From: Rhynchopus sp. YZ270_cl-10
Lineage: Eukaryota
Assembly: GCA_964035575.1 (NCBI GenBank)
Contig: OZ037834.1
Coordinates: 1,736,001-1,800,000, forward strand
Direction: 5' to 3'
Length of the DNA: 64,000 nucleotides
Below, in pieces: positions 11,641 to 36,200 of this stretch (positions within the stretch are counted from its first letter, which is position 1; each line of letters opens with the position of its first letter). The notes beneath the pieces were generated by a model. The model made no database searches. It worked only from the letters and a program-made list of their open reading frames with translations, and was not told the origin of the DNA. The translations under genes were made by a program, and so were the position numbers.

Positions 11641-13632
11641 CCTGTCCTTCTTCGTTTTGGCAGTGTTTGAGGGGAGCGATGAAAAAGTTCTTTTTTTTAC
11701 TGAGTGATTTTTTTAACCAAAAGAAAACCGACGCAGGAGCTTTTCTGGAACTGTTTTATTCTCCCCACCCCAACAACATCACATTTCAGAAAAACATTGT
11801 TTTTTCGTTTTTGTTCACTTTCTTTTCTTCTCCCTCACACCTGTTTGCTGTGAATTAAATTTTTTCGTTTCGGCCTGGTCGCAAACGCGAGTTTTCCTGG
11901 AAGCGCAGGAAAAATGACTGGGGAGTGTTGGTGGCTCCGTGACGCCACAGAGCCGGCACACTCGTTGAGTGCCTCACAAAACCTCAAATTTATTCCGCTT
12001 TGATTTCATTTATTGTCTTCACGCTTTATCGTTGTTGTTGGGTTGGGAAATAATATTTCATTCTCCCATACATTCTCGGTTACAATTGAGTGACAAAGGG
12101 CACATTATCACCCACCTTTGTGGGAATTCACAAAATTACACGAGTTTTATCCCCTTTTTTTACCACATTAACCTCACCTTTCCCGATAACTGCGTTTCTA
12201 CACCATACATTTCATTCATTAATCACACTCCACATTTACACTCATCACAGGATCGTGAAATCTGAACTGCATCTGCGATTGTGATGAGAAGCCTCGCCGC
12301 GTCTCCGACATTCAGCAACTCAAAATCCAAAGAGTATCACCCGCATCAATCCATTCTGAGTTTGCGGACTAAGATCTGGGGTGGAAGGGGGATGGGTACA
12401 CTTTGTCAGTCACTGCTATTGCCATTTAACCCAGGGAGCATAGCTAGTGCAAGAAATTCGACTTTGGAAACCTTCCGGAAAGTCTGTCCTCTGCTTGCGG
12501 AGGACGAGGCACAAGAAAATATTGCGTTCCCCCAGAAAACCAGTGCACATTTCACACTCCTTGTGGGTGGTCTTGTTGCCTTTTTGTCACAGTAATTTTG
12601 GCCCAGGCATGCTCTTGAAGCATGACAATTTAGTGTGTATGGGGCAGGGTGTTGTTTTGTTCTGAATTCTCTTTGTTATAACATCTAAGTCAATCGCGGG
12701 TGGTGGTTTGTGTAGCGTGAGGCACTCTTTTTAACAAACTTCCTGCGGCTGCTAAAGCGTTATTTCTTCGGATTTAACAACGTACAGCGTAACATAGTGG
12801 ATTCGCCTGGTCGACACAACCTTTGATAGATATGGGATAACCAACCCCCTTCGACCCCTCGTGGGTTCACTAAACAAGCCCTCGTGGTAGTTAAACGCGA
12901 TTGACATTTACATTCCTAGAGATGAAAGAACAAGACAACACTTCTGTACCCGCGCATCAAAATTGTGGAAAACTTTGCACCCCAAACACCCTCAACAACG
13001 CCCGCCAAAAGGCGCCCCTTGTTGCTGGGAGTTGGTTCTCATGTTTGATACCTGCACAGCGGGCATTCCTCTGAGTCCAACGCATGTTTGGCCTGTCTGC
13101 GGCGTTGTACTTCAGGTGCACGAAGACAGGGTCTGGTGGTAAATTTTGCGTAGTGTCGCATTCCCTCATGTGTGGGTCACTCACACTTGGCGGTCATGTG
13201 CCACTGCGTGGGTCTGGGAATTTGGGTACCTGGGTACAGGAAATTTGTTGTGGAAGACATCAACCACCATGCATTGAGGAGGGTAAGACAGTGTTCGCAG
13301 TTTCTACCTGATAGCATTACAACATTTAACTTCTCCACGGGGGTCTTGGGCCGTTCACTCGGTTCTACCTTGACTACCGGAAGATATTCTTGAGGCCTTT
13401 CTGGTCTCTAGAATATCCGGTCTTCCCGAACGGAGGCACACTTTGTGTGTTACTACGACCTGGCAATTTCCAGCAGTAGGTTAAGTAATCTTTCTTGTAA
13501 ATTGTTGGATCATTATCTCCTCAGTGCATGAATGCCCCACGTGACTGGACACTTTTGTGTTTGTCATGTGGAGCTGTGGTTGCTCTTTCACGACTTTTTT
13601 CCTGTTCCTGGGTACCTGTTCCTGGACCTGGA

Positions 13633-14014
13633 CCTGGGTACCTGGGTACCTGGGTACCTGGGTACCTGGGTACCTGGGTACCTGGGTACCTGGGTACCTG
13701 GGTACCTGGGTACCTGGGTACCTGGGTACCTGGGTACCTGGGTACCTGGGTACCTGGGTACCTGGGTACCTGGGTACCTGGGTACCTGGGTACCTGGGTA
13801 CCTGGGTACCTGGGTACCTGGGTACCTGGGTACCTGGGTACCTGGGTACCTGGGTACCTGGGTACCTGGGTACCTGGGTACCTGGGTACCTGGGTACCTG
13901 GGTACCTGGGTACCTGGGTACCTGGGTACCTGGGTACCTGGGTACCTGGGTACCTGGGTACCTGGGTACCTGGGTACCTGGGCACCTGGGTACCTGGGCA
14001 CCTGGGCACCTGGG
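13633..14014 (+). repeat. 8-bp tandem repeat (CCTGGGTA)n
   Basis: Read directly from the sequence. Confidence 0.98.
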
Positions 14015-15599
14015 TGTGCCTGTCGGACCCCTGAGTCCGACTGTCGGACTCAGGGGGTCCGACTGTCGGACCCCCTCGGACTCCGACAAAAGGGTCCGAC
14101 ATTTCCAGGACAGACTGCACCGTGCAGGCCAAAAAAATATTTTCCCCCCGTTGAAAGCGGTCGTCGCGCGCTTCGCGCGCGCCTCCCTGCCAACCACAGA
14201 GGGTATTATATAGCCCCCCTAGCCTCCACCAAAAAGGTGGTTTTGTGTGAGGCAGTCATTTTTTTCTGTGCGGAAAACTCAGCGGAAAAATTCTCGGCAT
14301 TTTGTGATGCACGGCCAACCTACACCACCCCAACCCTTCTCTGCGGGAAAGCTTCCCTCCTCTGTGCCTTGGTAGATTTCAGCCACTGGTAATCCGCAAT
14401 CCGTAGTGGGTGTCCGCCTTCTTATCAGTAACCTTAGTAAATTTATAAAAGAAATGGTGGCTATGGACTAACCAAAGGTTAGTCAGGTAACCAAAGGTTC
14501 CTGGCGAAGCCACGGTACGCAACATTTCAAAAATCGTGCTTAAAATTGCACTATTTTACAGCCAAACTATGTCATGGGAAGGGTGGGTTGCAAGCTTGCG
14601 CCGCAGGCGCACGGTACGCTACTTTTATGATTTTGCCAGATCCTTTTTCTCAAAAAATGACGGCAGGAAACGGCGTTTTGTCGCGTTGAAAACGCCGTTT
14701 TCTCGGGGGGAACAGCGCTTCGCCAATTTTGAAAACGGCGTTTTTTTAAAAGGCAAAACGGCGAAACGGCGTTCTCAAAAAAATTTTTTTTTGTGATTTT
14801 GGCCAAAAAGGCAAAACGGCGAAACGGCACTTAGCAATATGCCTGATCCTGGGGACGTTTTTTTTTTTTTTCTATACCTTGGAAAAAAAAGACCCCATCA
14901 GTTGGTCATCAGAAAAAGAAAAATGTGATGGACAGTTTCAACAAGCATTTCCCTTCCCGACTACCATTTTTTGAGGTACACTGTCACGAGCGGGCTTTTG
15001 TATTTCAAGTCTGGTTGTTTTGTTTGGTGAACTTAGCACAGCAAAGGTTCGGTTCATCTTCCCCTTTTTTTTACCAAACCTTCCCTTTTTTTCATGCGAC
15101 CCAAGCAAACGCAAGGCTTAGAGTCTCATCATCACAACTTTTCTCTTTTCCTTTACCGCTCCCCCTTTCCCTTCCCTTCCCCTTCCTTCAAAAAAAGCGC
15201 GGAGATCACACGAGAAAAAAAAAACGAGGTGACTGCACTGGTGCTTTCGGAAATCGGTCAACGACCTGTCAATATCGACCCCTCCCGGAGCTCCATACAC
15301 GTTATCAATTTTTCAAAAAGAAAAACGAAGAAGAAAAAAAAAGAGCAAAACTAAAACGCATTTTTGTTCCCTTGTCGCACCTTTTTACAAAGGTGAAGCA
15401 TATTTATGCATCTCTCATCTTTTCAACTTTTCTTTTCTTTTTCTCCAATATTTTTGTACATTCAATTTTGACAACAGAAAAGGAAAACGCCAGGGCGTAG
15501 TACTGTGGTTTTATTGTTGTATTTTGTTCTCTTTTCCCCTTCCAATTCCACCAATTTTACTTCGAAAATCAATGAAAAATATAGAGCACTTCAGGCCAG

Positions 15600-15737
15600 T
15601 ATGTCGACAGCAATATGGGGTAGTACGAGAGGAACTCCCATTTCTCCCTGGTATCTACGGTTGTCCGATCGGACAGTGCCGTGATGCTACCACTGGAATG
15701 GATTATGGCTGAACGCCTCTAAGCCAGAACCCAGTCT
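15600..15737 (+). rRNA. Isolated LSU (28S) rRNA 3'-domain fragment including the sarcin-ricin loop, probably a pseudogene
   Basis: AGTACGAGAGGAAC (15622-15635) and GATTATGGCTGAACGCCTCTAAGCCAGAA (15701-15729) occur in canonical order. No rDNA context on either side. Confidence 0.85.
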
Positions 15738-16436
15738 CGTCCTCCCACGCAACTCACAATGGGGAACGCAAAAAAAAAAACACAAAAATTCTTATCAAAG
15801 AGAAAAAGAGAGTACTGTATTCGTACAAATTATCGATCGTAATAATGTTCGACCTTTCAAGATTTTTATGGAAGTTCGACCTTTTTTGCGGAACATTTTT
15901 TTACGAAGACGGTATTACCATCTGAAGACGCATATCAAGACACAGGCAAATGGCCAGCTCTTAGGCACTGCCTATACCTCTGCTTCCAACCCCTCCCACC
16001 CCACCCCTCACAATTCGCGATTCTGTTTTTTTGTTTTGTTTTGTTTTGCTGTTTACACACCAAATCAAATGAAACAGACCGCCCCCCTCTCCTTTTCTCT
16101 CCTATCCCACTGGCACCCTGCAGATCTACGCGGGTCCCGATTTATGCGTTTTTTTTTTTTTTTTCAAAAAAAAACCTTTTTCCCCTTTTCCAAAAAGAAT
16201 TCCATCCCTCATTTTTTTTTTTTTTTTACCTCCCGCCCTCTCTCTCTGTCTTCTTCCCCTCCACCTCCACCACCCCAGGGTGTTACACAAAACAAAACTA
16301 CACCAAAAAACCTACACGAGATAACAGAAAAAAACCCCTTCTCTTTTCTCTTCTCTCATCACCCCCCTCCCTCTTGGGGGGTTTTCATGTCTCGCAAGGT
16401 TAGAACTAGATCTACTCTAGACTTCTTCTGTTTCCC

Positions 16437-19400
16437 ATGCATCTCTTTGCAATAACCTTGTTGTTATATTTCAGCGATTCTGATGCAACAGCAGTGGTGG
16501 TGGGGTCTGATATTATTCGGAGTGAGTACAACCTAGAAGAATATGCAGAAGAAAGGGACAGTGAACACATGCACTTCTGGGACGGCAGATGCAACCCTTT
16601 GAAGTACCGTGACTGGGATTACCTCTCTACGGGGGTCTCCTCCTTGCAAGACGTCGCTTGGGATCGCGATGAAGGGTTCGAACTGACACAACGGGACAGA
16701 AGTATTGCGTCACCACATCTCCGCATGCGTTCTCTCGCTATGGATGAATATGGGGCATCGTGGATTAAATATACGAACGGCCCTTCAACCGATGTGTGGG
16801 TCACCATAAAGGAAAAACTCTCAGAGCTGCATCTGTCCGACTCAGACCAAGGGAGTTTATACTCAAAGCCGTGGTATGAGTTCAGCACCTTTGAGCATTG
16901 GTCGTTCTATAAGAGGGATTTTCCGGAGGTGTCGTTCCCTATTGCGAGGAATGTACGGAGAGCGGCGGATCTATCGTCAGATGGACGGCATTTGATTTTT
17001 ACGCATGAAGTGGCAGTAGGGGAGGAGGATGAGTATGACGCATGGAAGTTCAAGACACCAGCGTTGCAGCGGACCTTTACGCTGATTGACATTCAAAAAA
17101 AGCTGAAAATTGCGTTAGAATCTCCGTGCATCGGCGCAGACACAGAGAACACCAAATACTACATATTATCGCCTGCTGTCGTTGGGGATTGGGTTTTGCT
17201 TGAAAAATGGGATGCTGACGCAAAGGTGCTGAACATCTTACTCTATAATATCGACCGTGGTACACGAAAGGTGGTGACGCATTATGCTGGGTTGAACCAC
17301 GTTATTTTCCAGGCAAATCTTTGGAACGCAACGAATGGGGTAGTGACGGGCACAGCCCCGCATGCCTTTTTTCTTTTTTTGGATGTAGAATTTGCAGGGG
17401 AAACACCGCTGTCGCTAGCTTCTTATGGGGAAGCGGTGTACGGCATTCACCTTGACTGGACGAATGTCAGGCAGGTCTCCATTGTGTACACAGAGCTGCC
17501 TTCGGGGCTTCGGTGCTTTATCCCTGCAGAGGAGTTGGTGCAGATCCTTCATGCTGTGACGTATTCGTATAACGGTGAGTCAGTGGTGCAGTCTGCGACC
17601 TCGAGGAATTTCTCTAGGGTTCTCTCCTCTGTTGGTGCAGGAAATTGGATTTTTTCGATTCTGCATTCTCCAGAAGACCCGCCATTATATACTGTCGCTG
17701 CAACCCAGATTTACTCTGAGGATTGGACAGAAGGGGAACGGCGGGGTTGTCTTGAGTCACCAGAAACGCACGTTGTCGACTCTGTCACCACTGCAGACAC
17801 CGTCACCTTTGTGTCCAGCTTTCACACCGGGGTGGTGATCTCTGTTGGAAAGAACAATACACGGTATCTCATTGGGGAATATACAGACCGAAATGAGGGG
17901 GAAGGGTTTTCTGTATGCCGGCTGTTTGACCCTGCAGAGGAGGGAGAGGTGGGGGAGGCAGTGGTCTTTCATGATGTGGTGCTGTACCAGAGAGAGGACA
18001 ACGGGAGCGTTCGGTTGATGATGGCGGATTTGAACAAGGACAACGATGCGGCGTGGGATATTGTCGATAGGTTTCCTTTGCGCAACCAGTTTGTGAATGA
18101 TACTGACAATGATGGGATAGGTGACGCAGGGGACCTCGTTGAGGTGCATGGACGCTGTACGGACCACCTCCGAACGGACCCCTCAGAGTGTGTCAACGAC
18201 CTGGTGATTCTCTACTCAGCATGGGGTGCGTTCGTTGTTGTCATGGTGTCCGTCTGTCTTGCCGTAGGGTGCTACCGCAAGAAACACCTAGACGATCTCT
18301 ACCTAAAGCGGCAGGCTACTGCGCGTGAATGGATAGATCGGCAGTGGCGTGAGTCTGCACGTCACGACATCCCCGAGCAAGAGCTCTTCACGTTAATGGC
18401 AGAAATAGATGAAAGGATTCAAAGGCAGGAAGGGTTCCGGGTATGTAAAAGGGGGATGTGGGGGGGGAGTGTTTGGAAAAAAGAGTTGGGAAGGAATGAA
18501 CACAGACCGGGGGCAGCTATGCAATTTATCTGGACAAAATTGTTGTAAATAATATTATCTCAAAAAGAAAAACCCATTTCCTTTTGCAGGGAGAATTGGT
18601 CATGCAGTCACTGCTGTTCTTGCTGACGATCATCTCGGTTGGGTTGTGGATTGTGTCGATGTGGCGTTCAAATCCGTCCCTCAAGGTGTGTACTCTGGTT
18701 TTTTTCTTTCTGAAGCCTTGTATTACTGGGGATCCTCAGTAACACTCCTGAGGTCACACCCTTTTCTCCTTTGCCCATCATATGCCACACATTTCGTCAG
18801 TTGCTCAAATAACCACTACATGTTATTGGCTTTAGCAAACCAACACCAAAACCTACAACAGTTTGAACGCACCCTTGCGTGGATAGACTTCTTCACGTCC
18901 ACTGTGTTTCTCATGGATTTGGTGTACCGCTGGTTCTTCCGTATTGAAGGCGAGTATAAATCCTTCAAGGACTACTGCATCAAGAACTGGTACGACTTCC
19001 CAAGCCTCATCTCCGACATCCCGGGACTTACCGGGGCCGGCACACTGAGCATCCTTGTTGTCGCCCGATTGATCCGTGTTTTGCGCATCTTTAAGGTACG
19101 GCCCCTATTGAATCTAACCACACACCATTTCTTCTTGCACAGATGTTCCGTGTCGTCCGCCTATACCACAGGGTGACGCAGCAGCAGGCGATTCTTGCAC
19201 TCATTCTCCGTTACGACACCATGTGGCAGACGGTGTTTGTGTGCGGGTTGATTCTGTCGCTGGGTGTGGTGATCAAGCTTATTGAGCAGAATGAGCAGGC
19301 CGTGTTTGACCCGTATGAGAACGTGTTGTGGTTCTGTGTCGTGACAGTGACCACCATAGGGTATGGGGATATGGTGCCGGAGAACCCTGTTTCACGGATC

Positions 19401-21359
19401 ATCGCCGTCTTCCTTATGGTGTCCGGGATTGGCATCATTGGAGTGCTGACGGCGTCGATGGGCGAGAGTGTGCGCGACTCCGGCATCGACAAGAGCATGC
19501 TGAATGATAAGGTGCGTCGTGTGCAGCAAGGCAAATGGCGGCTTTCCCTAGAAGTCCTGCGGTACTCCGTGCTCTACAACCCGATACTAGCGCTGTTCAA
19601 GCCGTACGAAAGGGGGACCTGCTCGCATCCGCACTGCCTTCGCTCGTCGCGTGTGATCACTGCGGAGGACAGCGTTGTGACGGTGACGTATCAGAACTCG
19701 AGGTACCATGCGTCGTGCTTTCGATGTGCCGACTGTGGGAAGACCCGCACTGAAGCGGACGGTGCGTGCTGGGTGGTGCCTGAATACGCGAAGGCGAACC
19801 AATCTGTGAAGCGCCGTCGCCGCACTGCCTCTGTCCTGGGTGCGGCGTACAAAGACACGGGGAGTGCAACCACGGCGTCTGTGTTCCTCCACAAGCGCTG
19901 CCTCCGGCGTGCACGTGGCGGTGATCACGCCGAGGTCCAGCCCAGCCCCTGCAGCGATAAGTCTGCCATGCGCACCGAAGACGACGCCGCCTCGACCGTG
20001 GACTCCATCATATCCCAAGCAAGCACCCGCGAGTCTGAAGGAGCGATGCTCATCGAGGAGCTCTCCGTGCAGGGCCTCTTCGGCGTAGCTGAGCGCTACA
20101 ACGGTTCCTACACACGGCGGATGGCGGGGAATGAGTTCAGCCCGGTGCTCTTTGACCACGATGTGTCGGGGCTTGCCATTATCACCTACGACGATGGGCA
20201 ATGGCAGCTTTTGTTCCGTCTTTCAGACCAGATTGAGACGTGCGCTGCGTCGTCGAAGTTTTTGGTTGGGGTGTGGGCGACGCCGACGGAACTTTCAAAA
20301 CTGTACGGGACACCTGTTGTGGAGGACGTTGGCTCGCAGCTGCACTACTGGCACGTTGTGTACGACCCGCTGGACATGCCCGTACGCAACCTTGTCATCA
20401 ACTATGCCTCACACCGCACACGGCAACAGTTCTCCAACCTCCTCGAGAGCCTCACCGAGGAGGGCAACGCCTCCCAAGGTGTCTCCATGGGGATGGGCAA
20501 GTTTGGTGCTGCTGTCGACATGCCGCGCCGCTCCACCACCGCAGAGCATATACAGTGCATGGAGCGGCTGCGCTACCAGATCAAGGTCGTCACCGAGCTC
20601 GACGAAAAACGAACAAAACTCCGCACACCGTGCGAGCCCGGCGAGAAGCTGACCCTCCTCCTCCGCACCCACAAGCTCCGAGAGAGCGGCAAGGTGACCA
20701 GCTTCGACCTCATGCGCGACCACCTTGAGTACCTCATCTTCAAGAAGAACGCCACCCGGCCGTGCGGCACGTCCCTCGAAAAGGTCTTCGCCATCCAAGC
20801 CATGCAAGAAGCCTCCCACGCAGGCAACCGATACCGCACCGACGACCAAGGCCTGGCGGCAGAGATGCGGCCATGGGACGAGAACGACCTGGACTGGACG
20901 GACACCGTGGAGTGGACCATGCATGAGGTGGAGCGCTGTCTCTGCGACCACGGTGTGGACCGGCTGCCACAGTACAACAGTGTACGCATCGAGCTCGAGA
21001 ACCTGGTACTGAGTTACGACAGGGTGTTGATGTGCCAGTGGGCGTGGCAGCATTTATCTTGGAAAAACTGGCAAGAAGGTGCGGTACGTCCCCTCAAGCT
21101 GCGTGTACAGCTCACCGACATGCCCGTCCCCCCAGGTGGCCGCACCCAATACGCTCAATACGAGACCTCCCTCCTCGACCCCCTCGCAGACAACCTCGAA
21201 CGCCATCAGCTCGAGACCGGCAAGGAGCTCGCCGCCTCCTCCCTCCTCCACGCAAGCAGCACCAACTCTGCGAACATCCGCCGTGCAAGCTCGATGGAAA
21301 GCGTGATGACAACTGGAATGGACCAGAAATGCACCCCCATGGGAAGAACAAGTTTTTAG
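16437..21359 (+). CDS. Voltage-gated K+ channel with a large ectodomain and LIM-like Zn finger, ~1516 aa; join(16437..18440,18590..18685,18862..19095,19143..21359)
   Basis: Three phase-0 GT-AG introns give a continuous frame. Signal peptide, extra TM helix, S1-S3, S4 ARLIRVLRIFKMFRVVRLYHR, pore VTVTTIGYGD, S6, then CSHPHC...YHASCFRCADCGK...HKRC. Confidence 0.92.
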
Positions 21360-21581
21360 TAGTAGTAAGGGGAGGGGAAAGGAGGAGGAGGAGTCCTGTT
21401 CCAAAAAAAAAAAAACAACCAAAAATATCGCTAGAGGCTAACTTTATAGCAATGAAAAAGTACAGTTTTTTTTCATTTTTTTTACCCCAAAATTCACTAA
21501 AACACTCCTTCCCATGGCACAAAGGTCTTACACAAGAAAAAAAACCTATTATTTCTCAATGCAATAAAAAATTGTACAAAA

Positions 21582-23191: not shown

Positions 23192-23291
23192 GGCCATTTT
23201 TATTATTATTTTGGCACCACAAAATAGGCTTCAATGAAGCAGCTTCAAAGCGTGTCTTCAACCCTTTAGAAAGGGTACCGTATAGCGTAGG

Positions 23292-23396
23292 TGGGAAATC
23301 TTTTGAAAACTGCGTCGTGATGAGGATCGATGCTTTGCAATTCTCCTTGAATGAGGAATGCCTAATAGGCGCAAGCCATCAGCTGTTGCACTGATT
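23292..23396 (+). rRNA. Degenerate SSU (18S) rRNA fragment (pseudogene)
   Basis: GGGAAATCTTTTGAAAACTGCGTCGTGATGAGGATCGATGCTTTGCAATT...GAGGAATGCCTAATAGGCGCAAGCCATCAGC...TGATT follows the conserved 3' region of eukaryotic SSU. Confidence 0.75.
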
Positions 23397-23736
23397 GGAG
23401 CATTTTTCTGTTTCTGACAGCAATTTTTTTTGACCAATGAGACAATAGTTTCCACAGAGGATTCTCTCCCTTCCGGGACGGTCCGCTGTGAAATTGGGCG
23501 CAAAAAGGGGGGTAGATAAGAAAAGCAATAAAAAAAAATGGACTCATTTTTTTCCCCTCTAATTTATCAATGATTTCCTCTAATTTACTACATATTTTCA
23601 CCTTTTTTTTCACCAGGAAAAAAAAAACAAACACACACACTAAAACATTCCTTTTAGCCGAGAAAAAGGGCGGAAAAAAAAAGGTTGAATGCACGTTGAT
23701 AAGTAGCAGCAAACCTAAAGAAAAAGAAGGGGTACT

Positions 23737-26700
23737 ATGTCCGAGCTTTTTAAAGCCATGGTGCGACTGAGCAATGGGACTGATGCGAGTGGCTTTACCG
23801 CGAAGAGTGACGGTGTGACCTCCGTTTTGAACAGGGTATGGCAAAAAAAAAAATTGCACCACAACGGGGTTTTCAGTAAAAAGCCGCGGTAAAACTTACT
23901 AAAGAGGGGGGTTTTTATTTTAAGGTGACTAAGCACGAGAGGCTTAGGATCATCTTGTAAACTTTTCTTTTATTTTGATGGTGTTGCGTCGTTTTTCTAG
24001 ACTCCTGGGTGTCGTTAACGCTGCATCTTAATACAAACTGTTCTATCAAAAGGGGTTTCCTTTAGACACATCTTCACTCTTTTTCGTTTATTTCACAACG
24101 CCACCCTGCCCCGTACCCACAGAACCAGCTCCTCACCTACGGTGGTGTGGTGACCGACAAGGTGTGGGGCCTGAATCTAACCACACTGAAGTGGGTGCAA
24201 TACCAATGCACGGGGTGGATCCCGCTGGCAAGAACCTTTCATTCCGCTGCAGTCTATGGCCAGCATATGGTATGCAGCTCACTTTCCGTTCTGTGGTGAG
24301 CGTTTTTGTTTTTTCGGATGGGGGAATGACTGTGTGCCTGCTTACAGTTTCCCTGTAGGCAACTTCCAAACACAACACTCCGGGGCTCGATATCCCGTTT
24401 AAAAGACAGCGGTGCTTACACAGCTTGGCAACTACACTATTTCAACAATTCTTCTAAAACATAATACAACTCCTCACACAGCTTGTCTACGGCGGGGTGT
24501 TGGAAGGTCTTGCCACCGAACCCGACTCCTCACCTTACTACGAACTGGACCTGGAGACGTACGACTGGATGCGTGTACAGACCTCTGGGGAGGCACCGGG
24601 GGTGCGTGCGTATCACACTGCGGTTGTGCATGGGGGGCGGATGATTGTCTTTGGTGGGCAGGATTTGTCACATGGTCCGGACCATGCGGTCACTGCCGCC
24701 GATGTGCAGCAGGCGAAGGCGGGGGGCTTCTTTGACCTCTTCGTCTTGGATATTGCGTCGCGCACGTGGTCGCGTATAGCCGTTGCACAGGAGGCACCCA
24801 TGCTGTGGGGGCACAGTGCAGTGCTCTTCAACAACTACATGCTTGTCTACGGCGGCTTCGATGTCACACCCGAGGAGGCCAGCAGCGGGGTCGTCACCTC
24901 TGCACCCGACGCGCCACCGAGCTGCTCCCTCAACGAGAAGGTCTACATCCTTGACCTCACGACGAATGAGTGGAAGATCTCTACCCCGTCCCCCCACGCA
25001 CCACACCCAGTACCACGTGGTCTCCATGTTGCAGAGGTGGTGGGGGCAGAGCTGCTCATCTTCGGTGGCATGACCTTCGACGACGCAGGGCGTGCCATCA
25101 ACGTCAACGACGCGTGGGTCTGGGACATCGCGATTGGCCGCTGGTCGCAGGTGGAGTTCTGCATTCCCTACTGGCCGAGCAAGCAGCTTCTCAGTGCGGT
25201 GCACGAAGGTCGCCTCATGGTGTGCAGCGACCTCACTGCGGTTCACGTTCTCGACTTCAACGACCGCCGCAAAGGATGGGTTAAGTACGCCACCGACCCT
25301 AGCCTTATGTTTGAAGACCGTCCTCAGCCACCACTACAGATCCCTGCCAATCCCATCCTACCCCCTCCAGCAGCGACACCACCGGTTGAGACACCGGCAG
25401 TAGTAAACACATCGCCGATGGTGTCGCCGGCAAGGGTGGAGGCAACCCCGGCGCGGTACTCTCCTGAACCAGCAACGTTGACACCACCGTTGCATCCACA
25501 GCCACAACCACAGCCACAGCCTCCACAGGGTTATTATGAAACGCAACCACAAAGACCTGTCAGACACATTGCGTCTCCTACCGTTCCTATGGTCGCACCA
25601 TTGCCGCCGGCGCCTGCATTAGCAAGAGCGCCGCCTCCACCGGGGCCTAGTCCAAGAGCACAGCAAGCGCAGGAGGAGGCAATGGAAAGACAGCGTATGC
25701 TACTGGAGGATGCGCGCAAGGCAAGGCAGGAGGAGGCGGTGCGGAAGCTGCAGAGGGAGATGAACACCTTGCAGGGTGAGTTGGGCGACCTGGCCGCGTT
25801 GAAGGAGAAGCTAGGTACGTCGACGCTGGCGCACAATGCGAACATCGGAGGCCCCTCTGTGTCGCCGCATCGTACGCACAACGTTGCATATCCTCCAGTC
25901 CCCTTGGGGGATGATCCCAGAGGGGCCAACCACTCCCTCCAGGTCAACGCCTTGACGAGCTATCTCGATAAGCTGCAAACACACCAAAAGTCTGTCATGC
26001 AGGAGCAAAAGAAGCGCCACAACGATTACCTCGGGGATCTGAACGACACGCATGCGGAGCATGTTAAGATGCTGAAACAGCGTGCAGACAGCCAGATCAC
26101 CGCGCAGCAGCAGATTGAAGCCATTTCGCAGACAGTCGACGTTGAGGAAAAGCTTCGCGAACAGATGGAAGCGATCCAGAAGACATACGCCTCCATGATG
26201 GAACTGCAACGCGAGCCCGAAAAGCTTCCATCACGCACACAAACACTCTACCCCGACGGTGCGGTGCCCATGGTGGAGATGCTCGGACGCCTCTCAAAGA
26301 TCAACCGCCAACCTATCGTCGAGCCTCAACGCGGCTGGGGTCCTCAAGCAAACTCTGCACCCCCTCCACCCGGCTACGCATCACGCGCCCCCTCCGCTTC
26401 AGTACCTTACAGCACCGTCCCCGCATCACCCATGGCTATCCCCCAGGTCTACCCACCTGCCCCAGCACCCACCCTACATACCTACCAGACCGCCCCACTA
26501 ACAAGCCTTCCCGCAAAGCCTCCAGGCAACCCCATGCTGGCAATGCTTGGCAAGACCGCAACTGGAGGCGCGTTTCCGGTGCCACAGACAGTTCCATCGA
26601 CCCCGGTTGGTCAAATGGGGGCAGGTGGACCGATAGGGTACGGACCTGGAGGGGTACCACCTGGGGGGCATGCGGATTTGATCAACCAAAAGGCAAGCCA

Positions 26701-26974
26701 TCTGCAGGATATGCGTGGCTCCCTCCAATCCATGCGGGACACAGTAAAGTCACCGAACACCTGGGAGGATGCGAAGCTCAGCCCCGCACGCTACTCCCGC
26801 GCCTCCTCCAGTCCAGGGGCATACTGGGAGAAGCTCAAAGGCATCATGGGTGACGACTACGTCGCAATAGAAGGCGACGGTGTCGGCAACATGGGCAACC
26901 TCCTCTCCCCTTCCCACTCAGGGTCGCCACTCCCAAGGGGCGACACCTCCCTAGAGGCTGGGTATCGAATGTGA
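23737..26974 (+). CDS. Kelch-repeat beta-propeller protein with Pro-rich and coiled-coil C-terminus; join(23737..23835,24123..24161,24482..26974)
   Basis: RAYHTAVVHGGRMIVFGG, WGHSAVLFNNYMLVYGG and RGLHVAEVVGAELLIFGG Kelch motifs. The two upstream exons are inferred from phase-0 GT-AG junctions and are less certain. Confidence 0.88.
23924..23956 (+). repeat. Hairpin repeat family A copy in Kelch gene intron 1
   Basis: GGTGACTAAGCACGAGAGGCTTAGGATCATCTT. Confidence 0.9.
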
Positions 26975-27210
26975 GATAGAACCAGCTTTTTTTTTTTTTT
27001 TGCGAGATCTGTAGACATGGCACATCTTGATATTTTGTGCGAATTTTAGAAGACTTCCTTTCCCCTCCCCCTGCCCCGTCTCCCTCCCAAAAAAAAACCA
27101 TGTATTTTCTGTAAAATGGCTGAATAAGATAGTGGGAGGGTGTTGTTTTTATCCTTTTCCTCCCCTGACATCATGTAACAACTCATCTCACAATACAGGG
27201 CCACAACACG

Positions 27211-30200
27211 ATGGCTGGGGCAATCGCCCTCGTCGTGCTTGCGGTTGTCGGTGATCTGCCTATATACTCAGACTTGACACCGCCGGCGCCGTATGTTAGT
27301 GTGAACAGCACATGGAACACTTCGAATTTTGCGTCGAATTTGCAGAGGCCGTTCCCGACCGGGCAGTGGTGGACGGCGTTCGCAGACCCAACGGGCACTG
27401 TAGACCCTGTGATCAACGCACTGCCCCTGCTTGTTAAGAGGATTGAGTGTGGGTTCGCCTTGGCACCCCCGACACTGACGTTTTCTAATGTGAATCGTGC
27501 TGCGTCGCACAGCTTCACCGACGACGTGACAGTGCGGGTGAGTACAAGCGCAACCGGGTGTGCGTCGTCGATCACCGGATGGGATTCATACTCAGTGACG
27601 ATGCTGCAGAGCGTGCCGCAGGGGTTGAGTGCGGGTGACGGGATTGAGTCGATCTTCGCGCGTGGGTCACCCTTCGCGTCGTTCAGGGCTGTGGGAGGTA
27701 CGTTTGCGGAGATCACCTTCAAGGACCGCATCCGGCAGGTCTCGAATGTGCAGATCAACGGTGCAGTGCCCGTCACGGCAAGCATGCTTAACATCACCAC
27801 AGAGGAAGGCGACGCGTGGCTCGTGTTGCTCCCACAAAAGACGCAGCTCACGATCACACGCACCAGTGTTGTCTACACAGAAGCAATGGACGGCTGGGTG
27901 CGTATCGCATACATCCCCACCACAGGAGGCTCGATCGCTGCCGCGTCCGAGTACCTCGTTGAGCACGGCAGCTGTGTCGCCCAAGGTGGTTCGCCCAACA
28001 CAGACATACGCGGCACAACACTGACAGTGGAACACAAATGGAACGGGGCAGGCAACACCTGCAACCCGCTGATGCTCACTGCGCCCCACCACAGGACATT
28101 CTGGAAAGACACGTGGTCGACTGCGTGGCTCAGCAGCCCGCTGCAGTACGAGACGCTGATGGGGGTGCTCATGCCTGCGCCCGCACGCTTCACGTCGTTC
28201 ACGCTTGCGCATGACGTTGTGGCCGGGTTTGACGACCTTACCACACGGGCGACAAACCTGCAGCTGTGCGAGGAGTACTTCCTTCACAACAAGGTGCTTG
28301 TGGACGATGCGTACCTCCTGGGCACCGTCCAGACAGACTCGAAGAACGCAACCGGAGAGGACGAATCCCTTCGGGTCAAGAGTCAGGAGCTCTACGGGCT
28401 GGCGAAGACGTACCGTGTGGCACGCCGTCTGAGTGCAGTGAAGATGGGACAACGTCTGCAGACGCGGATGTTTGAGGTGCTGTCAGGCATGACTTCGCTT
28501 GCTGCATACGACTCGACGTGGGGTGGCATGGTCATCTCGCCCCCAGACAGGCCCCTCTCCGAGAGCATCACCGACCAGTACGAGAACAACACAAAGATCT
28601 TCGGACGCATCCTCTATGGGTACGCAGAGCTCTACGGCACCCCGCCTGGGAGCGTCAAGCCTGCACCGACACCGCCAGCCTCTATCTCCGTCTTCATCAC
28701 GGCGCTGCTGCGCACGGTCATGTTCTCCGGCACCTCCGATTGGTACCCACAGCTGCGCAACTACGACTTCTACACGGCGCTGTCCTTCTCAGGTGGGCTT
28801 GTGGCCGACACCGAGGAGGGGAGGGTGTTGTCGGCCCCGTCAGATGCGCTGATTCAGTGGCAGGCTGCACGCGATGTGTCGACGCTGCTGGGCATTGCGA
28901 ACGCGACACAGCTGGCAACGATTCTGTTCACAATGGAGGCTGCCTCTGTGGGGGAGTACTGGCTGGCGCTCAACAGCAAGGTGGGAACGTCTTCTGTTGC
29001 AGTGGCGACGTACGGAACGATGAGCCTGTCGTCGCAGGACCAGCTCACAACACTGTCGCCTGTGGGCGAGCATCTGACGTCCCTGCGGACGGAGATTGCT
29101 TTGGTGGGGCGTACCACACAGATCATGACGAACCTGCTGCAGACGGTGCCGTCGACACTGCAGGACACAGCACGCCCCCTCGAGACGAACACATACGACC
29201 TCACGCTCCTCGGCATCATCAACGGCACGCACACGCTGCAGCTCCTCGAGAACGGCGTCAGCGTGAACTACACAGTCATGGAGCCGCTCTTCTCCATTGT
29301 TGAGTACGCCGTGCTCTCCGCCGACCCCTTCGCACTCATCCCCTGCAGCGAGATGTTCAGCACCTGGAACGGCTCACTCCCACTGACAGTGGTCGGACGC
29401 CAGCTGTGGTACAAAGACTCCTTCAACTACCAAGTGCGCTCCATCGACTACGTCCCCGGAGTGATCTACCGTGAGCCCACCCAGACCAACATCTACGGTT
29501 CTGTGTACGAGCGGATCTTCAAGCGTGACTTCCCGCGTATCAAAGACGCAGGGTTCAACACCCTGAAGGTGCGGTGGTTTTCGAGCAAATCTGTGTTGGG
29601 GATGACGGAGTTTGTGAACCTTGCGGCGGAGTTCGACTTGAACATTATTTTCACGTTTTCGGCGAGTGAGGATGAGGTGCTGAACAACAGGCATTTGACG
29701 GAGCAGCGTTTCATCGATGCGATGGATGCGATGGCCGACAAGTCAAACGTGATCATGTGGAACCTTGAGTCGACCTCCTTCGTGAGCATCTCTGTCGACG
29801 GTGCCTACAACTACCTGACGCTGTTCCGCCAGCTGCTGCGTATCCGTAACAAGTACGACTACTACCTGCGCCGCCCTCTGGCCCTCTCGCTTCTGCCCTT
29901 CTACGCCGATGCCTTGGCCGTGGGTGGACTCAACCCTGTCGACATTTACACCGACGGAGTTGAGATTGTCATCATGACGGTGTACGAACTGAACCTGACC
30001 TCCACACGAGAGCTGCTCGCAAAGGTCGCCCACCCCATCCACATCAACCTGCAGTCGGACTCGTACCACGGGATCAACGAGACGCAGGATGCTGTGTACC
30101 GTTCAGAGTTGCTGTTCAACCAGACGCAGATGGTGTTGGCATTGCACCACGAACACGAGGTGTGTGGTGTTGGTGTCATTGAGTGGGTGGACGAGTGGTG

Positions 30201-33200
30201 GCGTGGTGAGGACTCTGACTCTGACAACGACTGTTCGGACCCATCTCCCGGGCGTCACAGCCACTGTGCGACGCGCGTGATCGACTTCCACGACGGAGAG
30301 ATCAACCTTGAGCACCAAGGTCTGCACTTCCAAGAGGACAAGTGGCTGCTGCACTGCATCTCCCCGAAGCCGTCCTACAACGCTGTGTCGCGTGCGCTGA
30401 CCGGCACTTCTGTGGACCACGGCGAGTCGTGCCTCTTCATCCCCCTCGACAACTTCTGGGCCTGGTTCGTCATGATCGCGTCTGCAGCCTTCTTCATTGC
30501 AGGTATCGTCCTCTGCACCTCCATGCGTGTCCTTGCCTCCCGCAAGAAGCGCCGTGCCGAGAACAAAGGTGCCCAGTCGGGCACCCGCTGGCTCCAACCA
30601 GACATCTCAAAGATCTCGCGTATCATCGTGAAGCGTACCTGCACCCTCCCGCACACACAGACACCCTTCCAACGCATTGCCATCCAAACCGAGTCGGGTC
30701 TCTCCTCCAAGGACCCAGCCCCGCTCTCGGGGGAGTGGGAAGGCGAGGTGCTGTGGTCCGAGCTGGACCAGGTGCGCGAGCTTGGGGTGTTCCTCCAGTT
30801 TTCGGCCCTGCCAAACAATATTGGGTACACGATCCAAGGACAGGATGTTGGGAACAAATACAAGATCACTGGACAGACACGGTCGCTTGATGTTGCGCAG
30901 ACCTCTGGGATGCCGCGTACGAAGGAAGACGGGTCGAAGCTGCTTGTTGAGCGCTACTTGGTTGAGTTTGTTGCGAAGAACATGATCCCGGACCAGGACG
31001 GTGGGGTGGACGAGGACCTTGAGTTTGTTGGTGTGTGGGAGAAGTGGGAGTCGCTCCCGAACGAGGACGGCGCCACACGCATCTCTGAGGTCATTGCTGG
31101 CGGTGCTGCTGCAGCCCCTACCATCCCACGCGGCATTCAGACTGGGTGCAGAGTCATCGACCACGGCGAACCCTTCGTCGAGTTTGCCGGATCCTTCAAA
31201 CTCAGCCCACAGCCCGAGATCGACCCCTGGTGTTACAACAGATGGCAGTGTGTACGTCTCCAGCTGGAACGCCTGCAGATGCTTATCTACGACGAGATGC
31301 TCTGCCAAGGCCGCTGGGGGACAGAGGCCAAGTACCAAGAGACCGACGCTGCCTTTGACTACGCAGTGAGCACCCTGCACTACCGTTACATGCATTCTTT
31401 CTACGGATGGTGCCACGCGCAGGGGCAGGTCGGCGGGATCCTCGACATCCCAGACGAGGCGCAAGAGAAGCGGACCGACGAGCAGCTGACGGAGCTGCTT
31501 GCGCTCTTCACGCTGTGGCAGCTGGGTGAGCAGATGACGCTGTTTGCGGGACACTGGCTGAGTTGGAACTTCCACTACTTCATGAAGTTCAAGAAGTTCC
31601 CACCGACACACGTGATCAACGATGGGCGGCACTTCATGGAGACCAACCTCACATTTGACGACCTGAACGAATCATGTGCGTTGATGCCGTACTACGATGT
31701 GCCGCATCAGTGTAACGAGTACTGCCAGGAAGTGTGCTCGATTGCGCTTGAGGAGAAGGGCCAGCGTGCGATGCCGAAGCTGCTCCTTCCCGACGGCAAC
31801 GTCGACAAGAACGAGACCATGCGCTACCCCTTCTTCAAGACGTTCCGTGAGCCGCGCAAGTGGGGTGTCGTGTTCTACATGCTGCACGATGGGTTCTTCA
31901 TCCTGCACACAACGATCCTCATGTTCTTCTTCTGGGCACTTGTCGTACACTTCTCCGACGACAACGGCAGCCACGCCCTTGGCGAGGTCATGGAGCGCTC
32001 CTACAACGTGTGGAGTGGACAGCCGGACTCAATGCGCTTCATCTTCCTGGTGCTGTGCAAGATCGACTTCTGGATGGTCATCATCCACGAGTCGCTTGAT
32101 CTGTGGATCCTTTCTGGTATCACACAAAGCCCTGCGCTTGGTGTCCTGGGGACACGTGTGTGCAGCATGTTCGGTCTGATGGTGTGCTACTGCCGGTGCT
32201 GCTGCAAGCGGCAGAGGGGCGCGACAGACATCCGTGAGATCTCATGCCAAACGTTCTGGACGGACACGACGTGTCGCCGTATCCGACTGCGTCCGTTCTT
32301 CCAGCTGCGGTGGTCGTCGTACGTTGCGCTGGTGTCGTTTGCCATCTTCTTGGGTGAGTCGCTCTTTGAGAACGACGCAACCGTGTCGAGCATCCGCATC
32401 ACAGGGCACCTTCTCGTCCGCATCGGCTTCCTGCTGATCTTCAACGCCGTCATCACACTGTGGCCGCACAGACTGCACGGTTCCCCTGTACCGGCCGATG
32501 GGACGTCGCGCATCAACCACACTGCGTTGGTCATTTCGTTCTTCTTCTGGCTTCTCATTTACTCAGGCGCGTCGGTGTTCATGGCATGGACGATGTACCG
32601 CACGGAGAATACAGGGTTTTCGTTCTGTGACTGTGATGGGTTGCAGTCGGACATTGAGGACCACGGTGCGACTGAGTTTGGACGGGACTTACTGAGCAAG
32701 GTGTACTCTTGCGTGCGTGACCAGCCACGTTGCTTTACGGCAGTGTTTTTCATCTGGCTGTCGACGTGCGTGATGTTTGCGATCTCTGTCCACGGGGTGT
32801 TCCTGCTGGGTGTCGTCTTCCTTGGCGGTGTGAAGCACCTTCTCATGCAGTGGCAGAACAAGAAGTCGCGCAACCTGCGCTCCCACAAGATGGAGACGAA
32901 GTTCATCCTCTCCGCAATCAACGTCAAGCTGCTGTCCTTCTCAGACCCGCGAGACAACAAGCTTGCTATGCGCGTCTGGAACAGAGTCATCGAGGTCATG
33001 CACGAAGAGGACCTGCTCACATCATACGAAAGCGAGACCCTGCAGATCCACCCGCATATCGTCGACATCCAGTTCACACTCGAAAACGCCTTTGCAAAGG
33101 AACGCATGTCAGGCTTCCTTGAGTACCTTCAGAGCTCTACTGAGTTTGACGAGACGTTAGGCCCCGTGCAGTGCTACCCATCTGTGTCGGTGATCGTGCC

Positions 33201-36200
33201 TGTGTACGGTGAGAACGTCCTTGCCGACAAACGTGCCCTTCGTCTCAAGGCGCGTGGCGACCACCAGCAGCAGTCGCAGCTGCACTTCCTCGTTGAGTGC
33301 TACGAAGACGAATGGAACAACTTCATCGAGCGCTGTGTCAATGAACAGCGTCTCTTCCGTGGCGCGCTGCTTGAGGACCAGATTGTTGCCCTGCTGCAGG
33401 ACAAACAGACCCTGCAGGAGGAGTTCGACTACATCAAGAAGCGTGCCCTCAAGCCTGACCAGCGTCTGCGTGAGGTCTGCGGGAAGCGTGTTCTCGAGCT
33501 CTTCCACACGCGCCCGAAGCTCTTCAGCGACGAGGAGTTCGACGCTGTGTGGTGGTGGGCGTCGATGCGCATGCAGACTGTGGGCCGCACCATCCGTGGT
33601 ATCGAGCGCAACCGTGAGGCGATGCGCTTCCTTCTGGAGCTTGAGTCGGACTACACGCAGTCTGCGACCATCACCCCGACGTACATCGACATGATGTCTT
33701 CGGACAAGCTGCAGATTGTGATGGCCCTCCAGCGCATGTCGAACAGCAAATGGTACGACTCCAACAAAGAGGCGCTTGCAGCTGCGTGGCGGCGCTTCCC
33801 TAAGATGCAGGTGGTCTTCGACGTGGAGACGGCAGACTACCGCATGGCACCCGAGGTGTACCAGAAGAGCACGTACCTGATGCAGGACCTGTGGGACTGC
33901 ATGGAGTTCGCCTCTTGTGTTGCGCTGTGGGACGTCACGACTGAGGACTGGTATGTGAACCAGGTGGTGGGCAGGCGTCTGCCGCTGCGTATGACTAAGT
34001 CGGACCAAGTCAAGTGGAGCATCCCCGGCCCCATGCAAGGCAAGTCCGTGAACCAGGCACACTGTCTCCCCTTCTGCAAGGGGCAGGTCATCCAGACCGT
34101 CGACTGCAACCAGGACGGCTACTTCGAGGAGTCCCTCAAGATGCGGTCCCTCCTTGGGAAGTTCTTCCCGAGGGAGGACAGAAGGTGGTCGGAGTACAAG
34201 GTGGTGGGCCACCCGGAGTACGTCATCACGATGCAGTCGGGCACAGTCGGACGCTACGCAGGGTACGCTGAGTACATCTTCAACACGCTCTTCCAGCGTG
34301 TGCTCTCTACCCTTGGGGCACGCATGCACTACGGGCACCCCGACTACTTCGATGCCTCATGGGTGGTCACGCAAGGTGGGCTGTCGAAACCCAACCCCCG
34401 CCTGAACCTGAACGAAGATATCTTCGCCGGCTACCACATCAAAGCCTCTAAGGAGCACACCATCCACATGGACGACATGAAGAGCGGAAAGGGGCGTGAA
34501 ACGAACTTCGACGGCGCAATGGGTTTCGAGCAGAAGCTTGGCATGGGTGCGGCAATGCAGTACCGTTCCCGCGATGTGTTTGAGCTGTCGCGGTACTCAA
34601 ACTTTTTGGAGCGGCATTCGATTTTCTTTGGGTCGATTGGGATGTACGTTTACTTGGGACTTGTGTTCTCGCAGATCTTCACCACGATGATCCTGCACAT
34701 CTCCTTGCAGCTTGCAGGGAAGACCGAGTACGAGCTGAGCGGGACTCCTTACGGAAGCGAGTGGATGCTTCAGGTGACGTTGCTCGAGGCTCTGCCGCTT
34801 GGAGTGCAGCTTATCCTTGACTACGGCGTGTGGGGGCTGTTCCAGTGGTTCTGGGACTTCACCGGTGTGACGTGGTTCTTCTTGTTTGTATTCCTGACCA
34901 AATACCAGGCGTTCTGGGGCTCTGTTGTGCAGGGCAACGGGACGTACGTTGCTACAGGCCGTGTGGACCCGCTGTACCGCCGTTCATTCCGCCACATGTG
35001 GCGTCTCTACTCGCACTCCCACTTCATGTACGGCTCTCTGCTGCTCGCATTGGTAGTCCTCTTCATGGACATCACCAGCCTGAGTGGCTGGCGTGCGTTC
35101 ATTCGCTCGATCTTCCATTGGATGGTTGCCTTTGCTTGGATGGTCACACCATGTCTTTTCAACCCCTCTCTGACGATCCGTGGTTTGTTGAAGGACATTG
35201 TGCGGTTCTTTTTGTGGGTGTGGGGCGACGCCATTCAGAAGGTGAAGGGAACAGAAGACAGCCATACCCTTGGGGAGGGGCAACACAACGACAGAGGTGG
35301 CGAGAAGAAGAAGCTGGGTGAACTGTTCAACACTCTTGTCCGCAAGAACCGTGGTGATGCCGAAGGGGACGAGGCTGCGCAGTCTGGCGCCTTGGTGAGC
35401 AAATCACAGCGTGACGATGCGAAGACGCTTACTGCGTCACCATCGACCGAGTTTGGCGACAAGGACTCCTTCTTGGGCCTGCCTGCTGCAGAGGAGGAGC
35501 AACTAGAGAAGGACTTTGGTGTGAACGTGCTTTCCGAGCAGTCCTCTGAGGTTGTCGACGACTTTGGGGAGATGGAGATTGGCGACAACAAGCCGATTGC
35601 TGCTTCTACCGAGCATTCCTTTTCTCCACGCAACTTGCGTGGCTTTGAAGAATTCTACGACGCTGATGCACATCGCCCCACTGTGGGCACACGCCTCAAG
35701 AAGTTCGAAGACGACGACGAAGGCCTACGCGACTCAGACGAGCTCACCATGGAGCACTTCATCGACCGCGGTGTCGACCCCCGCACCCTCGACAACCTTG
35801 AAGACGTTTTCAACAAGCTCGATGCACGCAATCAATACCGTGGTCTCATTGGCCCCGAGCTCATCTTCCTTGGCTTCCTCAGTCGTGGTATCCGAGTAAA
35901 GCCCAGCGACGTCGAAGAGCACCTCCACGCACTGAACGTAACGGAGGTGACCCTCGAAGAGTTCTGTCTGATCTACTTCATGGTGGAGGGCACCAGCGCG
36001 CAGCTGGACAACTATGGGATTGACTATGCGATTGAGAATCTGCCGCAGGAGAAGTACGACTCAATTCTGAAGCAGCAGGAGGAGATGAAGAAGTACCGTC
36101 AGTACGACGACCCGCGCGATTTGCAGGCAGAATCCTACATTCAGTTTGCCTACGCGCTGAGACGCAGCAAGGCGGTGCGTGAGGTGCAGTTCTACGACTC

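Follow-up and report, generated by a model that had tools for sequence, protein, structure and literature searches.

The question raised by this locus is whether a large N-terminal domain and a K+ channel that are written in separate open frames belong to one protein. The locus occupies 16437-21359 (+) of a 64,000-nucleotide (nt) stretch of DNA from the diplonemid flagellate Rhynchopus sp. YZ270_cl-10, namely positions 1,736,001 to 1,800,000 of contig OZ037834.1 (assembly GCA_964035575.1), and this whole stretch is referred to below as the window. Three open frames (16410-18548, 18553-19176 and 19095-21359) lie here in two reading frames of the plus strand, and a first-pass annotation had spliced them into a receptor-like voltage-gated K+ (Kv) channel with four exons. 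This observation is confirmed: the locus is one four-exon gene encoding 1516 amino acids (aa). The protein begins with a signal-peptide-like hydrophobic stretch and an N-terminal domain of about 570-590 residues, which precede an extra transmembrane helix (TM0), a complete S1-S6 channel unit and a tail of ~630 aa after S6 that opens with a Cys/His cluster.

By reading the sequence across the three frames, three introns of 149, 176 and 47 nt are recovered, all of them GT..AG and all in phase 0 (Table 1). Each exon length is divisible by 3, and the joined coding sequence of 4551 nt gives 1516 codons plus the stop. The G+C content is 0.50-0.60 in the exons versus 0.40-0.47 in the introns and flanks. 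One 2779-nt contig of sequencing run X5 joins 18219-18439, 18589-18683, 18860-19093 and 19141-21366 with GT..AG ends; it skips exactly 149, 176 and 47 nt, and within the stated cut tolerance these are the three predicted junctions, so that the splicing proposed at 18440/18590, 18685/18862 and 19095/19143 is present in full in a single contig. Apart from this contig joining across them, the three introns have no cover in X5. In the contigs of X1, X2, X3 and X4, no joints occur at the three junctions and only the unspliced form is found, for example in an X4 contig spanning 18219-19682. The library types of X1-X5 are not on record, and we infer that X5 is complementary DNA. Transcripts ending at 18548 beside a separately trans-spliced channel mRNA, the alternative named in the first-pass annotation, are not shown by the only spliced evidence available. 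According to the available part of the Diplonema papillatum genome paper, genes of that genome are arranged in unidirectional arrays, their transcripts undergo spliced-leader trans-splicing, and introns are of the GT-AG type and number 1.6 per gene (PMC10161547); three introns are therefore ordinary in such an organism. Upstream, all contigs fit from 16279 on, directly after 16200-16278, which is masked as a repeat. A 22-codon frame with its own ATG (16387-16455, +) overlaps the main start codon in another frame.

The nearest relatives of the protein come from diplonemids, and the same chain is found in full-length homologues. In P0001, a D. papillatum 'putative potassium channel protein 2' of 1486 aa, and in P0002, a Flectonema neradi transcript open reading frame of 1480 aa marked as complete by its source, the domain order matches that of the window protein throughout, and S4 is identical across the intron 3 junction. 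They differ in that they come from other species, their records are named only as potassium channels, and Pfam marks the channel part alone. Both proteins can be aligned end to end with the four exon pieces; indels are small at the first two junctions and absent from junction 3. Over 93% of its length, exon 1 is 34% identical to P0001 within the first 640 residues of the latter (E 3.6e-102), exon 3 is 72% identical to P0001, and exon 4 reaches 50% identity with P0001 (96% of the query) and 46% with P0002. P0005, a call of 882 aa from another genome, is 40% identical to exon 1; it reads through intron 1 at the same residue as the assembly's own gene call, P0004, and further on it carries exon 3 out of frame (17/20 identical). 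P0004 itself has 703 aa (window 16437-18548) and ends at the in-frame stop of intron 1. Both halves thus share one locus in 4/4 close relatives, and in two of these (P0004 and P0005) the gene is truncated by automatic calls.

The wider family was reached with a profile of the ectodomain only, built without any channel sequence. Among 1.84 billion representatives, this profile matches 61 proteins at E ≤ 0.001, of which 35 reach 1e-10 and 5 reach 1e-30. The 27 that were scanned with Pfam were chosen for their length from P0006-P0042, with 18 short proteins set aside, and in 22 of these 27 Ion_trans and/or Ion_trans_2 lies downstream of the ectodomain match. The remaining five are short fragments (P0006, P0013 and P0028), a protein with TPR-type matches (P0017) and a TSP_3-type protein (P0037). 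The order of ectodomain and channel is thus kept in at least 22 other proteins, and the order first annotated for the window protein is borne out by the spliced contig, the collinear homologues and this wider family together. According to the source of the records, the members include a second paralogue in D. papillatum (KAJ9451282.1, labelled 'Shal'), proteins of D. ambulator, D. japonicum, Namystynia karyoxenos and Artemidia motanka, the prokinetoplastids Papus ankaliazontas and Apiculatamorpha spiralis, the glaucophyte Cyanophora paradoxa (five entries) and the pedinophyte green alga Pedinophyceae sp. YPF-701, as well as one MMETSP transcript and Transcriptome Shotgun Assembly and environmental records; the lineages were verified for three species. 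Because 22/27 carry the channel and come from several groups, this is a widespread channel family that is listed only under the generic name 'potassium channel'.

In 20 full-length members, defined as those in which a pattern found both the Asp-rich motif and the filter (P0031 and fragments were left out), the sequences were aligned. The last Asp-rich motif stands 259-397 aa ahead of the [TS][VI]GYGD filter in 20/20; the Asp-rich motif, the Cys pair and the hydrophobic TM0 are in register in 19/20, the MMETSP member P0042 being without the Cys pair. Across the 20 members, S2, S3 and S4 have similar motifs, and the basic spacing of S4 is kept in most. The window gene has all the family elements, namely the ectodomain match, the Asp-rich motif, the Cys pair, TM0 and Ion_trans. 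Two members have unusual models: P0017 (1181 aa) carries the ectodomain and TM0 with TPR-type matches in place of the channel, and the Cyanophora model P0014 (1955 aa) has a peptidase M13 fragment ahead of the ectodomain-channel unit. Such models may reflect further fusions, or else be merged or chimeric. Scans of metagenomes with the ectodomain and tail patterns gave 117 and 352 pattern matches, none of which was confirmed by tblastn.

In exon 4, Pfam recognises Ion_trans_2 (PF07885; 60.5 bits, cut-off 22.5, 1.5e-16) and Ion_trans (PF00520; 29.0 bits, cut-off 25, 7.6e-07); exon 3 alone stays under the Ion_trans cut-off with 19.9 bits (4.6e-04), and for full-length P0001 the scores of the channel families are 44.7 and 57.7 bits. 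The order S1-S6 plus the pore loop is present both in the hydropathy plot, with peaks at S1 (672-690), the S4 stretch (762-782), S5 (807-825), the pore (839-857) and S6 (864-882), and in the family profile, whose positions 644-848, from S1 to the pore, align with KCNQ2 residues 26-235. The profile finds KCNQ2 at E 1.4e-11 and KvAP at 1.7e-11, and a sequence search of the PDB with P0001 finds them at 1.3e-12 and 4.6e-11; because KCNQ and KvAP tie, no K+ channel subfamily can be assigned. The PDB sequence searches with P0001 and with the full-length profile gave nothing outside S1-S6, and exon 3 alone gave 0 matches at E ≤ 1. S4 has seven basic positions at three-residue spacing, R, R, R and K from exon 3, followed by R, R and H-R from exon 4; when the alignment is made via P0001, six of the charges fall on KCNQ2 S4 arginines and one more stands ahead of them. 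Thus, Pfam, hydropathy, the KCNQ2 alignment and the filter at 19350-19370 agree with the complete S1-S6 unit, Arg-rich S4 and TTIGYGD that had been read at first. By analogy with known channels, the protein would be a K+-selective, voltage-dependent tetramer. The HMMER alignment of P0001 with KCNQ2 runs for ~50 residues past S6 (P0001 residues 860-910) and then stops; KCNQ channels have calmodulin-binding and tetramerising helices in the C-terminal part, and the KCNQ2 region just after S6 is the first calmodulin-binding helix, so that an element shared after S6 may be taken as a lead.

Ahead of the channel, TM0 has a hydropathy peak of 2.31, and the hydrophobic stretch at the start of the protein also begins all three homologues. 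The 15 residues after TM0 hold five Lys or Arg and the 15 before it hold one, and in the AlphaFold2 model the TM0 region is a long helix (586-641). Given this K/R bias and the usual orientation of channels, the first ~570 residues are expected outside and the linker on the inner side; this predicts the N-terminal domain on the outer (or luminal) face, and the linker, the start of S1 and the long tail in the cytosol. The conserved sequon at N297 and the four conserved Cys of the N-terminal domain fit this topology.

The N-terminal domain had been described as a beta-rich ectodomain, with AlphaFold and Foldseek suggested as a check. Its beta-rich nature and matches to propellers were recovered, at low confidence of the model (mean predicted local distance difference test score, pLDDT, 44.9). 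The AlphaFold2 model, made from four sequences, is all-beta with ~26 strands (aa 173-531), and its pLDDT is 50-74 over aa 170-535. Foldseek returned 51 solved chains at E ≤ 0.001, led by S9-type peptidase propellers; every recognised protein among the matches listed contains a propeller, with low TM-scores of 0.2-0.29. Against 48,161 chains, the top 50 of VIA-align are, as far as recognised, propellers (Z 14.9-11.8), which include six-bladed sialidases, TolB, integrin alpha and a CatSpermasome chain. The outer domain is therefore probably a propeller of six or seven blades to which no family can be assigned. In ESM Atlas, the ectodomain scores at most 0.85 (WD40/PD40 and TSP_3 clusters), which is a lead only, and self-BLAST found no internal repeats in the ectodomain. 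The propeller-like part is 24-28% identical to the orthologues. Five sequons are present in the N-terminal domain, in agreement with the several NxS/T sites first noted, and N297 and N554 are kept in both full-length homologues; Cys 52, 494, 574 and 585 of this domain are invariant in three sequences. A Pfam DUF3228 match on exon 1 (16.2 bits versus a cut-off of 25) was rejected as a chance match, being absent from the homologues.

Close to the membrane, the DxDxDG-type motif placed near 18099 in the first-pass annotation corresponds to the Asp-rich motif NDTDNDGIGDAGD, which starts at 18096. The Asp-rich motifs are the best conserved outer element (62-76% identity to the orthologues), and their D/N columns are invariant in 7/7 sequences. 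Positions about 480-525 of the ectodomain profile, which cover these motifs, match proteins in 5-26 stretches each, and TSP_3 or TSP3_bac is found in 11 of the 13 such proteins scanned (in P0044 under the cut-off, in the other 10 over it; neither family occurs in P0057 and P0063). By analogy with thrombospondin-type-3 repeats, which are typical of extracellular proteins, the Asp-rich motifs may bind Ca2+.

At the other end of the protein, a LIM-like finger had been proposed. The Cys/His cluster exists, with ten C/H positions invariant in three sequences (C938, H940, C943, H967, C970, C973, C976, C987, H1028 and C1031) and a central H-x2-C-x2-C-x2-C as in LIM. Its first pair is C-x4-C and its last pair stands 40-50 residues off, so the spacing is atypical of the eight Zn ligands of a canonical LIM domain, and the assignment to LIM stays below the Pfam cut-off: PF00412 gives 22.5 bits in the window protein versus 22.9, with half of the profile matched, and 17.8 bits in P0001, and there is no Pfam LIM match in P0002. 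For the rest of the tail (aa 1036-1480), no Pfam or PDB match and no usable ESM Atlas match were found, and NCBIfam gave weak channel matches only; the AlphaFold2 model of the tail is unusable (pLDDT 35.6, predicted TM-score 0.21).

Table 1. Features of the gene and its predicted protein, with positions in the window
Feature	Position	Strand	Basis or remark
Pyrimidine-rich tract with AG at its end (16277-16278)	16200..16278	+	candidate spliced-leader acceptor and start of 5' untranslated region
Exon 1, aa 1-668: signal-like start, N-terminal domain, TM0, cytosolic linker	16437..18440	+	first in-frame ATG after the 16407 stop
Signal-peptide-like hydrophobic start, aa 1-17	16437..16487	+	hydropathy peak aa 4-22; cleavage predicted
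Beta-rich region, aa 171-535	16947..18041	+	AlphaFold2, putative six- or seven-bladed beta-propeller, low confidence
Two thrombospondin-type-3-like Asp-rich motifs, aa 531-566	18027..18134	+	predicted Ca2+-binding site
Juxtamembrane stalk with Cys pair C574 + C585	18156..18191	+	invariant in window protein, P0001 and P0002
TM0, extra transmembrane helix, aa 589-612	18201..18272	+	hydropathy peak at aa 589-607
Predicted cytosolic linker, aa 613-668	18273..18440	+	54-59% identity to orthologues
Intron 1, 149 nt, GTATGT..GCAG	18441..18589	+	contains in-frame stop 18546-18548
Exon 2, 32 aa: S1	18590..18685	+	
Intron 2, 176 nt, GTGTGT..ACAG	18686..18861	+	
Exon 3, 78 aa: S2, S3, first four S4 charges	18862..19095	+	
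Intron 3, 47 nt, GTACGG..ACAG	19096..19142	+	splits S4 after the fourth charge
Exon 4, 738 aa + stop: remaining S4, S5, pore, S6, cytosolic tail	19143..21359	+	
K+ selectivity filter TTIGYGD	19350..19370	+	sequence
LIM-like Cys/His cluster, aa 938-1031	19620..19901	+	Pfam LIM and invariant columns
Conserved cytosolic tail, aa 1036-1480	19914..21248	+	32-49% identity to orthologues; 45-49% over aa 1181-1480

To our knowledge, Kv channels have cytosolic N-termini and reach large outer domains only via separate auxiliary subunits. The nearest channels by sequence, KCNQ2/Kv7.2 and KvAP, share S1-S6, the charged S4 and the GYGD filter with the window protein, and their N-terminus is cytosolic; unlike them, the window protein has a signal-like start, an outer domain of ~570 aa, TM0 before S1 and an unrelated tail of ~630 aa. 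In BK (Slo1), the extra helix S0 before S1 would likewise put the N-terminus outside, as in the predicted orientation of TM0; BK has a short outer tail and cytosolic RCK domains. In contrast to BK, no RCK-type Pfam family is matched by exon 4 at E ≤ 0.1 or by P0001 and P0002 at E ≤ 5. In polycystin-1, which belongs to the same superfamily, a receptor-like giant ectodomain is fused to a six-helix channel-like domain; polycystin-1 has eleven helices, a TRP-type non-K+ pore and other ectodomain modules than the window protein. On the other hand, as described in the available part of PMC10950684, DPP6 and DPP10 (on Kv4), LRRC26 (on Slo1) and the CatSper accessory subunits combine a big ectodomain with one helix beside the voltage sensor, and the ectodomain of DPP6 and the CatSper subunits is a propeller. 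The same source has these helices bind voltage-sensor domains, DPP6 on S1/S2 of Kv4 and LRRC26 on Slo1 including S0. These auxiliary subunits are separate polypeptides, and the C-terminus of DPP6 is outside, whereas the module of the window protein is fused covalently upstream of S1. The CatSpermasome chain among the VIA-align matches has Z 13.3; because this fold match is generic, homology to the CatSper subunits is not claimed.

Based on this likeness, we consider it likely that the architecture includes a built-in auxiliary or receptor module that sits on the voltage sensor. One spliced mRNA gives the N-terminal domain, TM0 and a complete six-helix K+ channel in one chain. With a cleavable signal peptide and TM0, the propeller-like domain would face the outside or a lumen together with the Asp-rich repeats and the Cys pair, and a K+-selective pore opened by voltage would be made up of four subunits. 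TM0 may pack on S1-S4, as S0 of BK and the single helices of DPP6 and LRRC26 do; the four outer domains may together make a crown to which Ca2+, and perhaps a ligand or a surface, would bind, and they may set where or when the channel works. Of the first-pass reading, the gene model and the domain order are supported; the ligand- or adhesion-coupled K+ channel proposed there is hypothetical. A stronger form, that this is an old, overlooked eukaryotic 'receptor-Kv' family in which an outer Ca2+-binding propeller is wired via a covalently attached helix to the voltage sensor, appears doubtful at present, and we are equally hesitant about its functional side, in which K+ channel opening would shift in direct response to contact, a ligand or external Ca2+. 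If true, Kv channels would have a gating mode that has not been described for them, and a pore subunit would be naturally fused with an auxiliary subunit.

Several points weigh against the proposal of a built-in module. The spliced form is seen in a single contig of a single run whose library type is unrecorded, and in all five runs, from two studies, the long contigs listed break at 18219-18248, within the TM0 codons. Because of this break, the continuity of the mRNA across TM0 is given by a 30-nt overlap of the spliced contig with another X5 contig, which covers 16279-18248. The break probably stems from a branching word, either an allele or a repeat. The outside location of the N-terminal domain is a prediction from sequence features. 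The ectodomain model, with the mean pLDDT given above, is poor, the VIA-align match list is flat across unrelated propeller families, and a seven-sequence ectodomain profile found no solved structure in the PDB at E ≤ 10. At E ≤ 5, Pfam TSP_3 (PF02412) matches neither the window protein nor P0001, P0002 or P0005. Conservation of the linker that follows TM0 is limited to close orthologues, with variation in the wider family, and a family-wide coupling role of this linker is thereby weakened. Finally, in the available part of PMC10950684, the ectodomain of DPP6 is dispensable for Kv4 modulation and the helix is its essential part.

The last point is also what speaks for the rival that survives best, namely that the outer domain serves anchoring, sorting, assembly or adhesion and does not gate, and that TM0 alone tunes the voltage sensor. 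The Kv4-DPP6 modulation that stays intact after ectodomain deletion (PMC10950684, available part) would be its precedent, and the fast evolution of the propeller-like part (24-28% identity versus 71-87% for the channel part, relative to the orthologues) fits a surface recognition or scaffold domain. However, the membrane-adjacent Asp-rich motifs and the Cys pair are near-invariant (19/20), which points to a conserved role near the channel, and modulation by LRRC26 needs its ectodomain according to the same part of that source. We hold a purely non-gating outer domain to be somewhat unlikely, and the built-in module is kept as the preferred explanation.

Placement of the channel in an internal membrane (vacuolar, lysosome-like or secretory), where the N-terminal domain would face the lumen and not sea water, is unlikely. 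The predicted topology is identical for a luminal and an outside face, and the long conserved tail with its Zn-finger-like cluster could hold sorting or docking signals; no targeting motif was identified, however, and thrombospondin-type-3 repeats are usually found outside the cell.

It is less probable still that S1-S4 is a relic and that the tail or the outer domain, not voltage, does the gating. Voltage dependence cannot be read from sequence, and the tail is large and without an assigned function, but the seven basic S4 positions are kept, and the acidic and aromatic positions of S2 and S3 are conserved across the 20 members, which come from distant groups.

A very improbable rival is that the locus gives two products, a 703-aa ectodomain-TM0 protein that stops within intron 1 and a second mRNA for the channel, which would begin at exon 2 and have a spliced leader of its own: P0004 is called to end at the intron 1 stop and P0005 is called likewise, and an intron-retaining isoform is possible because rare variants drop out of contigs, but in the X5 contig all introns are bridged between exon 1 sequence, from 18219 on, and exons 2-4, the two parts share one chain in P0001 and P0002 as well as in 22 wider relatives, with transcript assemblies as the source of several of these proteins, and exon 2 starts in the middle of the alignment without a start codon context.

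The single-chain layout with its putative auxiliary or receptor module is shared by diplonemids, prokinetoplastids, a glaucophyte and a green alga. It offers a naturally occurring case for studying the action of an extra helix and an outer domain on a voltage sensor. It may also represent an unstudied surface-sensing route in diplonemids, in which the cell surface is linked directly to a channel; diplonemids are ranked among the most abundant marine microeukaryotes in the available part of the D. papillatum genome paper (PMC10161547). In literature searches on protist, diplonemid and Cyanophora channels and on thrombospondin-type-3, no description was found of a Kv subunit with a fused outer domain and an extra helix. 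As far as their available text goes, two channel surveys (PMC7576140 and bioRxiv 10.1101/2025.02.15.638427) make no mention of diplonemids, Euglenozoa or Discoba, and their supplements may list such proteins; in the same text, the words 'extracellular' and 'N-terminal' are absent from PMC7576140, and 'ectodomain' and 'extracellular domain' are absent from bioRxiv 10.1101/2025.02.15.638427. The proteins themselves are already known from public databases under generic names; the ectodomain-TM0-Kv layout is described in no paper found, and is new in this sense. Because gene calls are cut at the intron stop and the intact ones are named 'potassium channel', surveys by keyword or Pfam miss the family.

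In the surroundings, all long frames of the window lie on one strand. Upstream of the gene, a tandem array of an 8-nt unit (CCTGGGTA) with ~52 copies, 97% matching, occupies 13607-14015. The gene flanks at 14400-16100 and 23250-24600 consist of dispersed intergenic repeats: they show numerous foreign joints, and their summed word depth in X4 is 1e4-1e6, compared with ~300-800 within the gene. In X5, too, the cover of flanking regions is dominated by repeats, and it was set aside. Downstream, 24458-26974 (+) encodes an 838-codon Kelch-propeller protein, and 27169-42774 (+) is a stop-free frame of 5201 codons with a Pfam Glucan_synthase match (4.9e-87) and a weak GH81 C-terminal match, which makes it a candidate giant beta-1,3-glucan synthase. 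Further on, a 2181-codon frame at 57174-63719 (+) has Big_9 and cadherin-like matches and is surface-adhesin-like.

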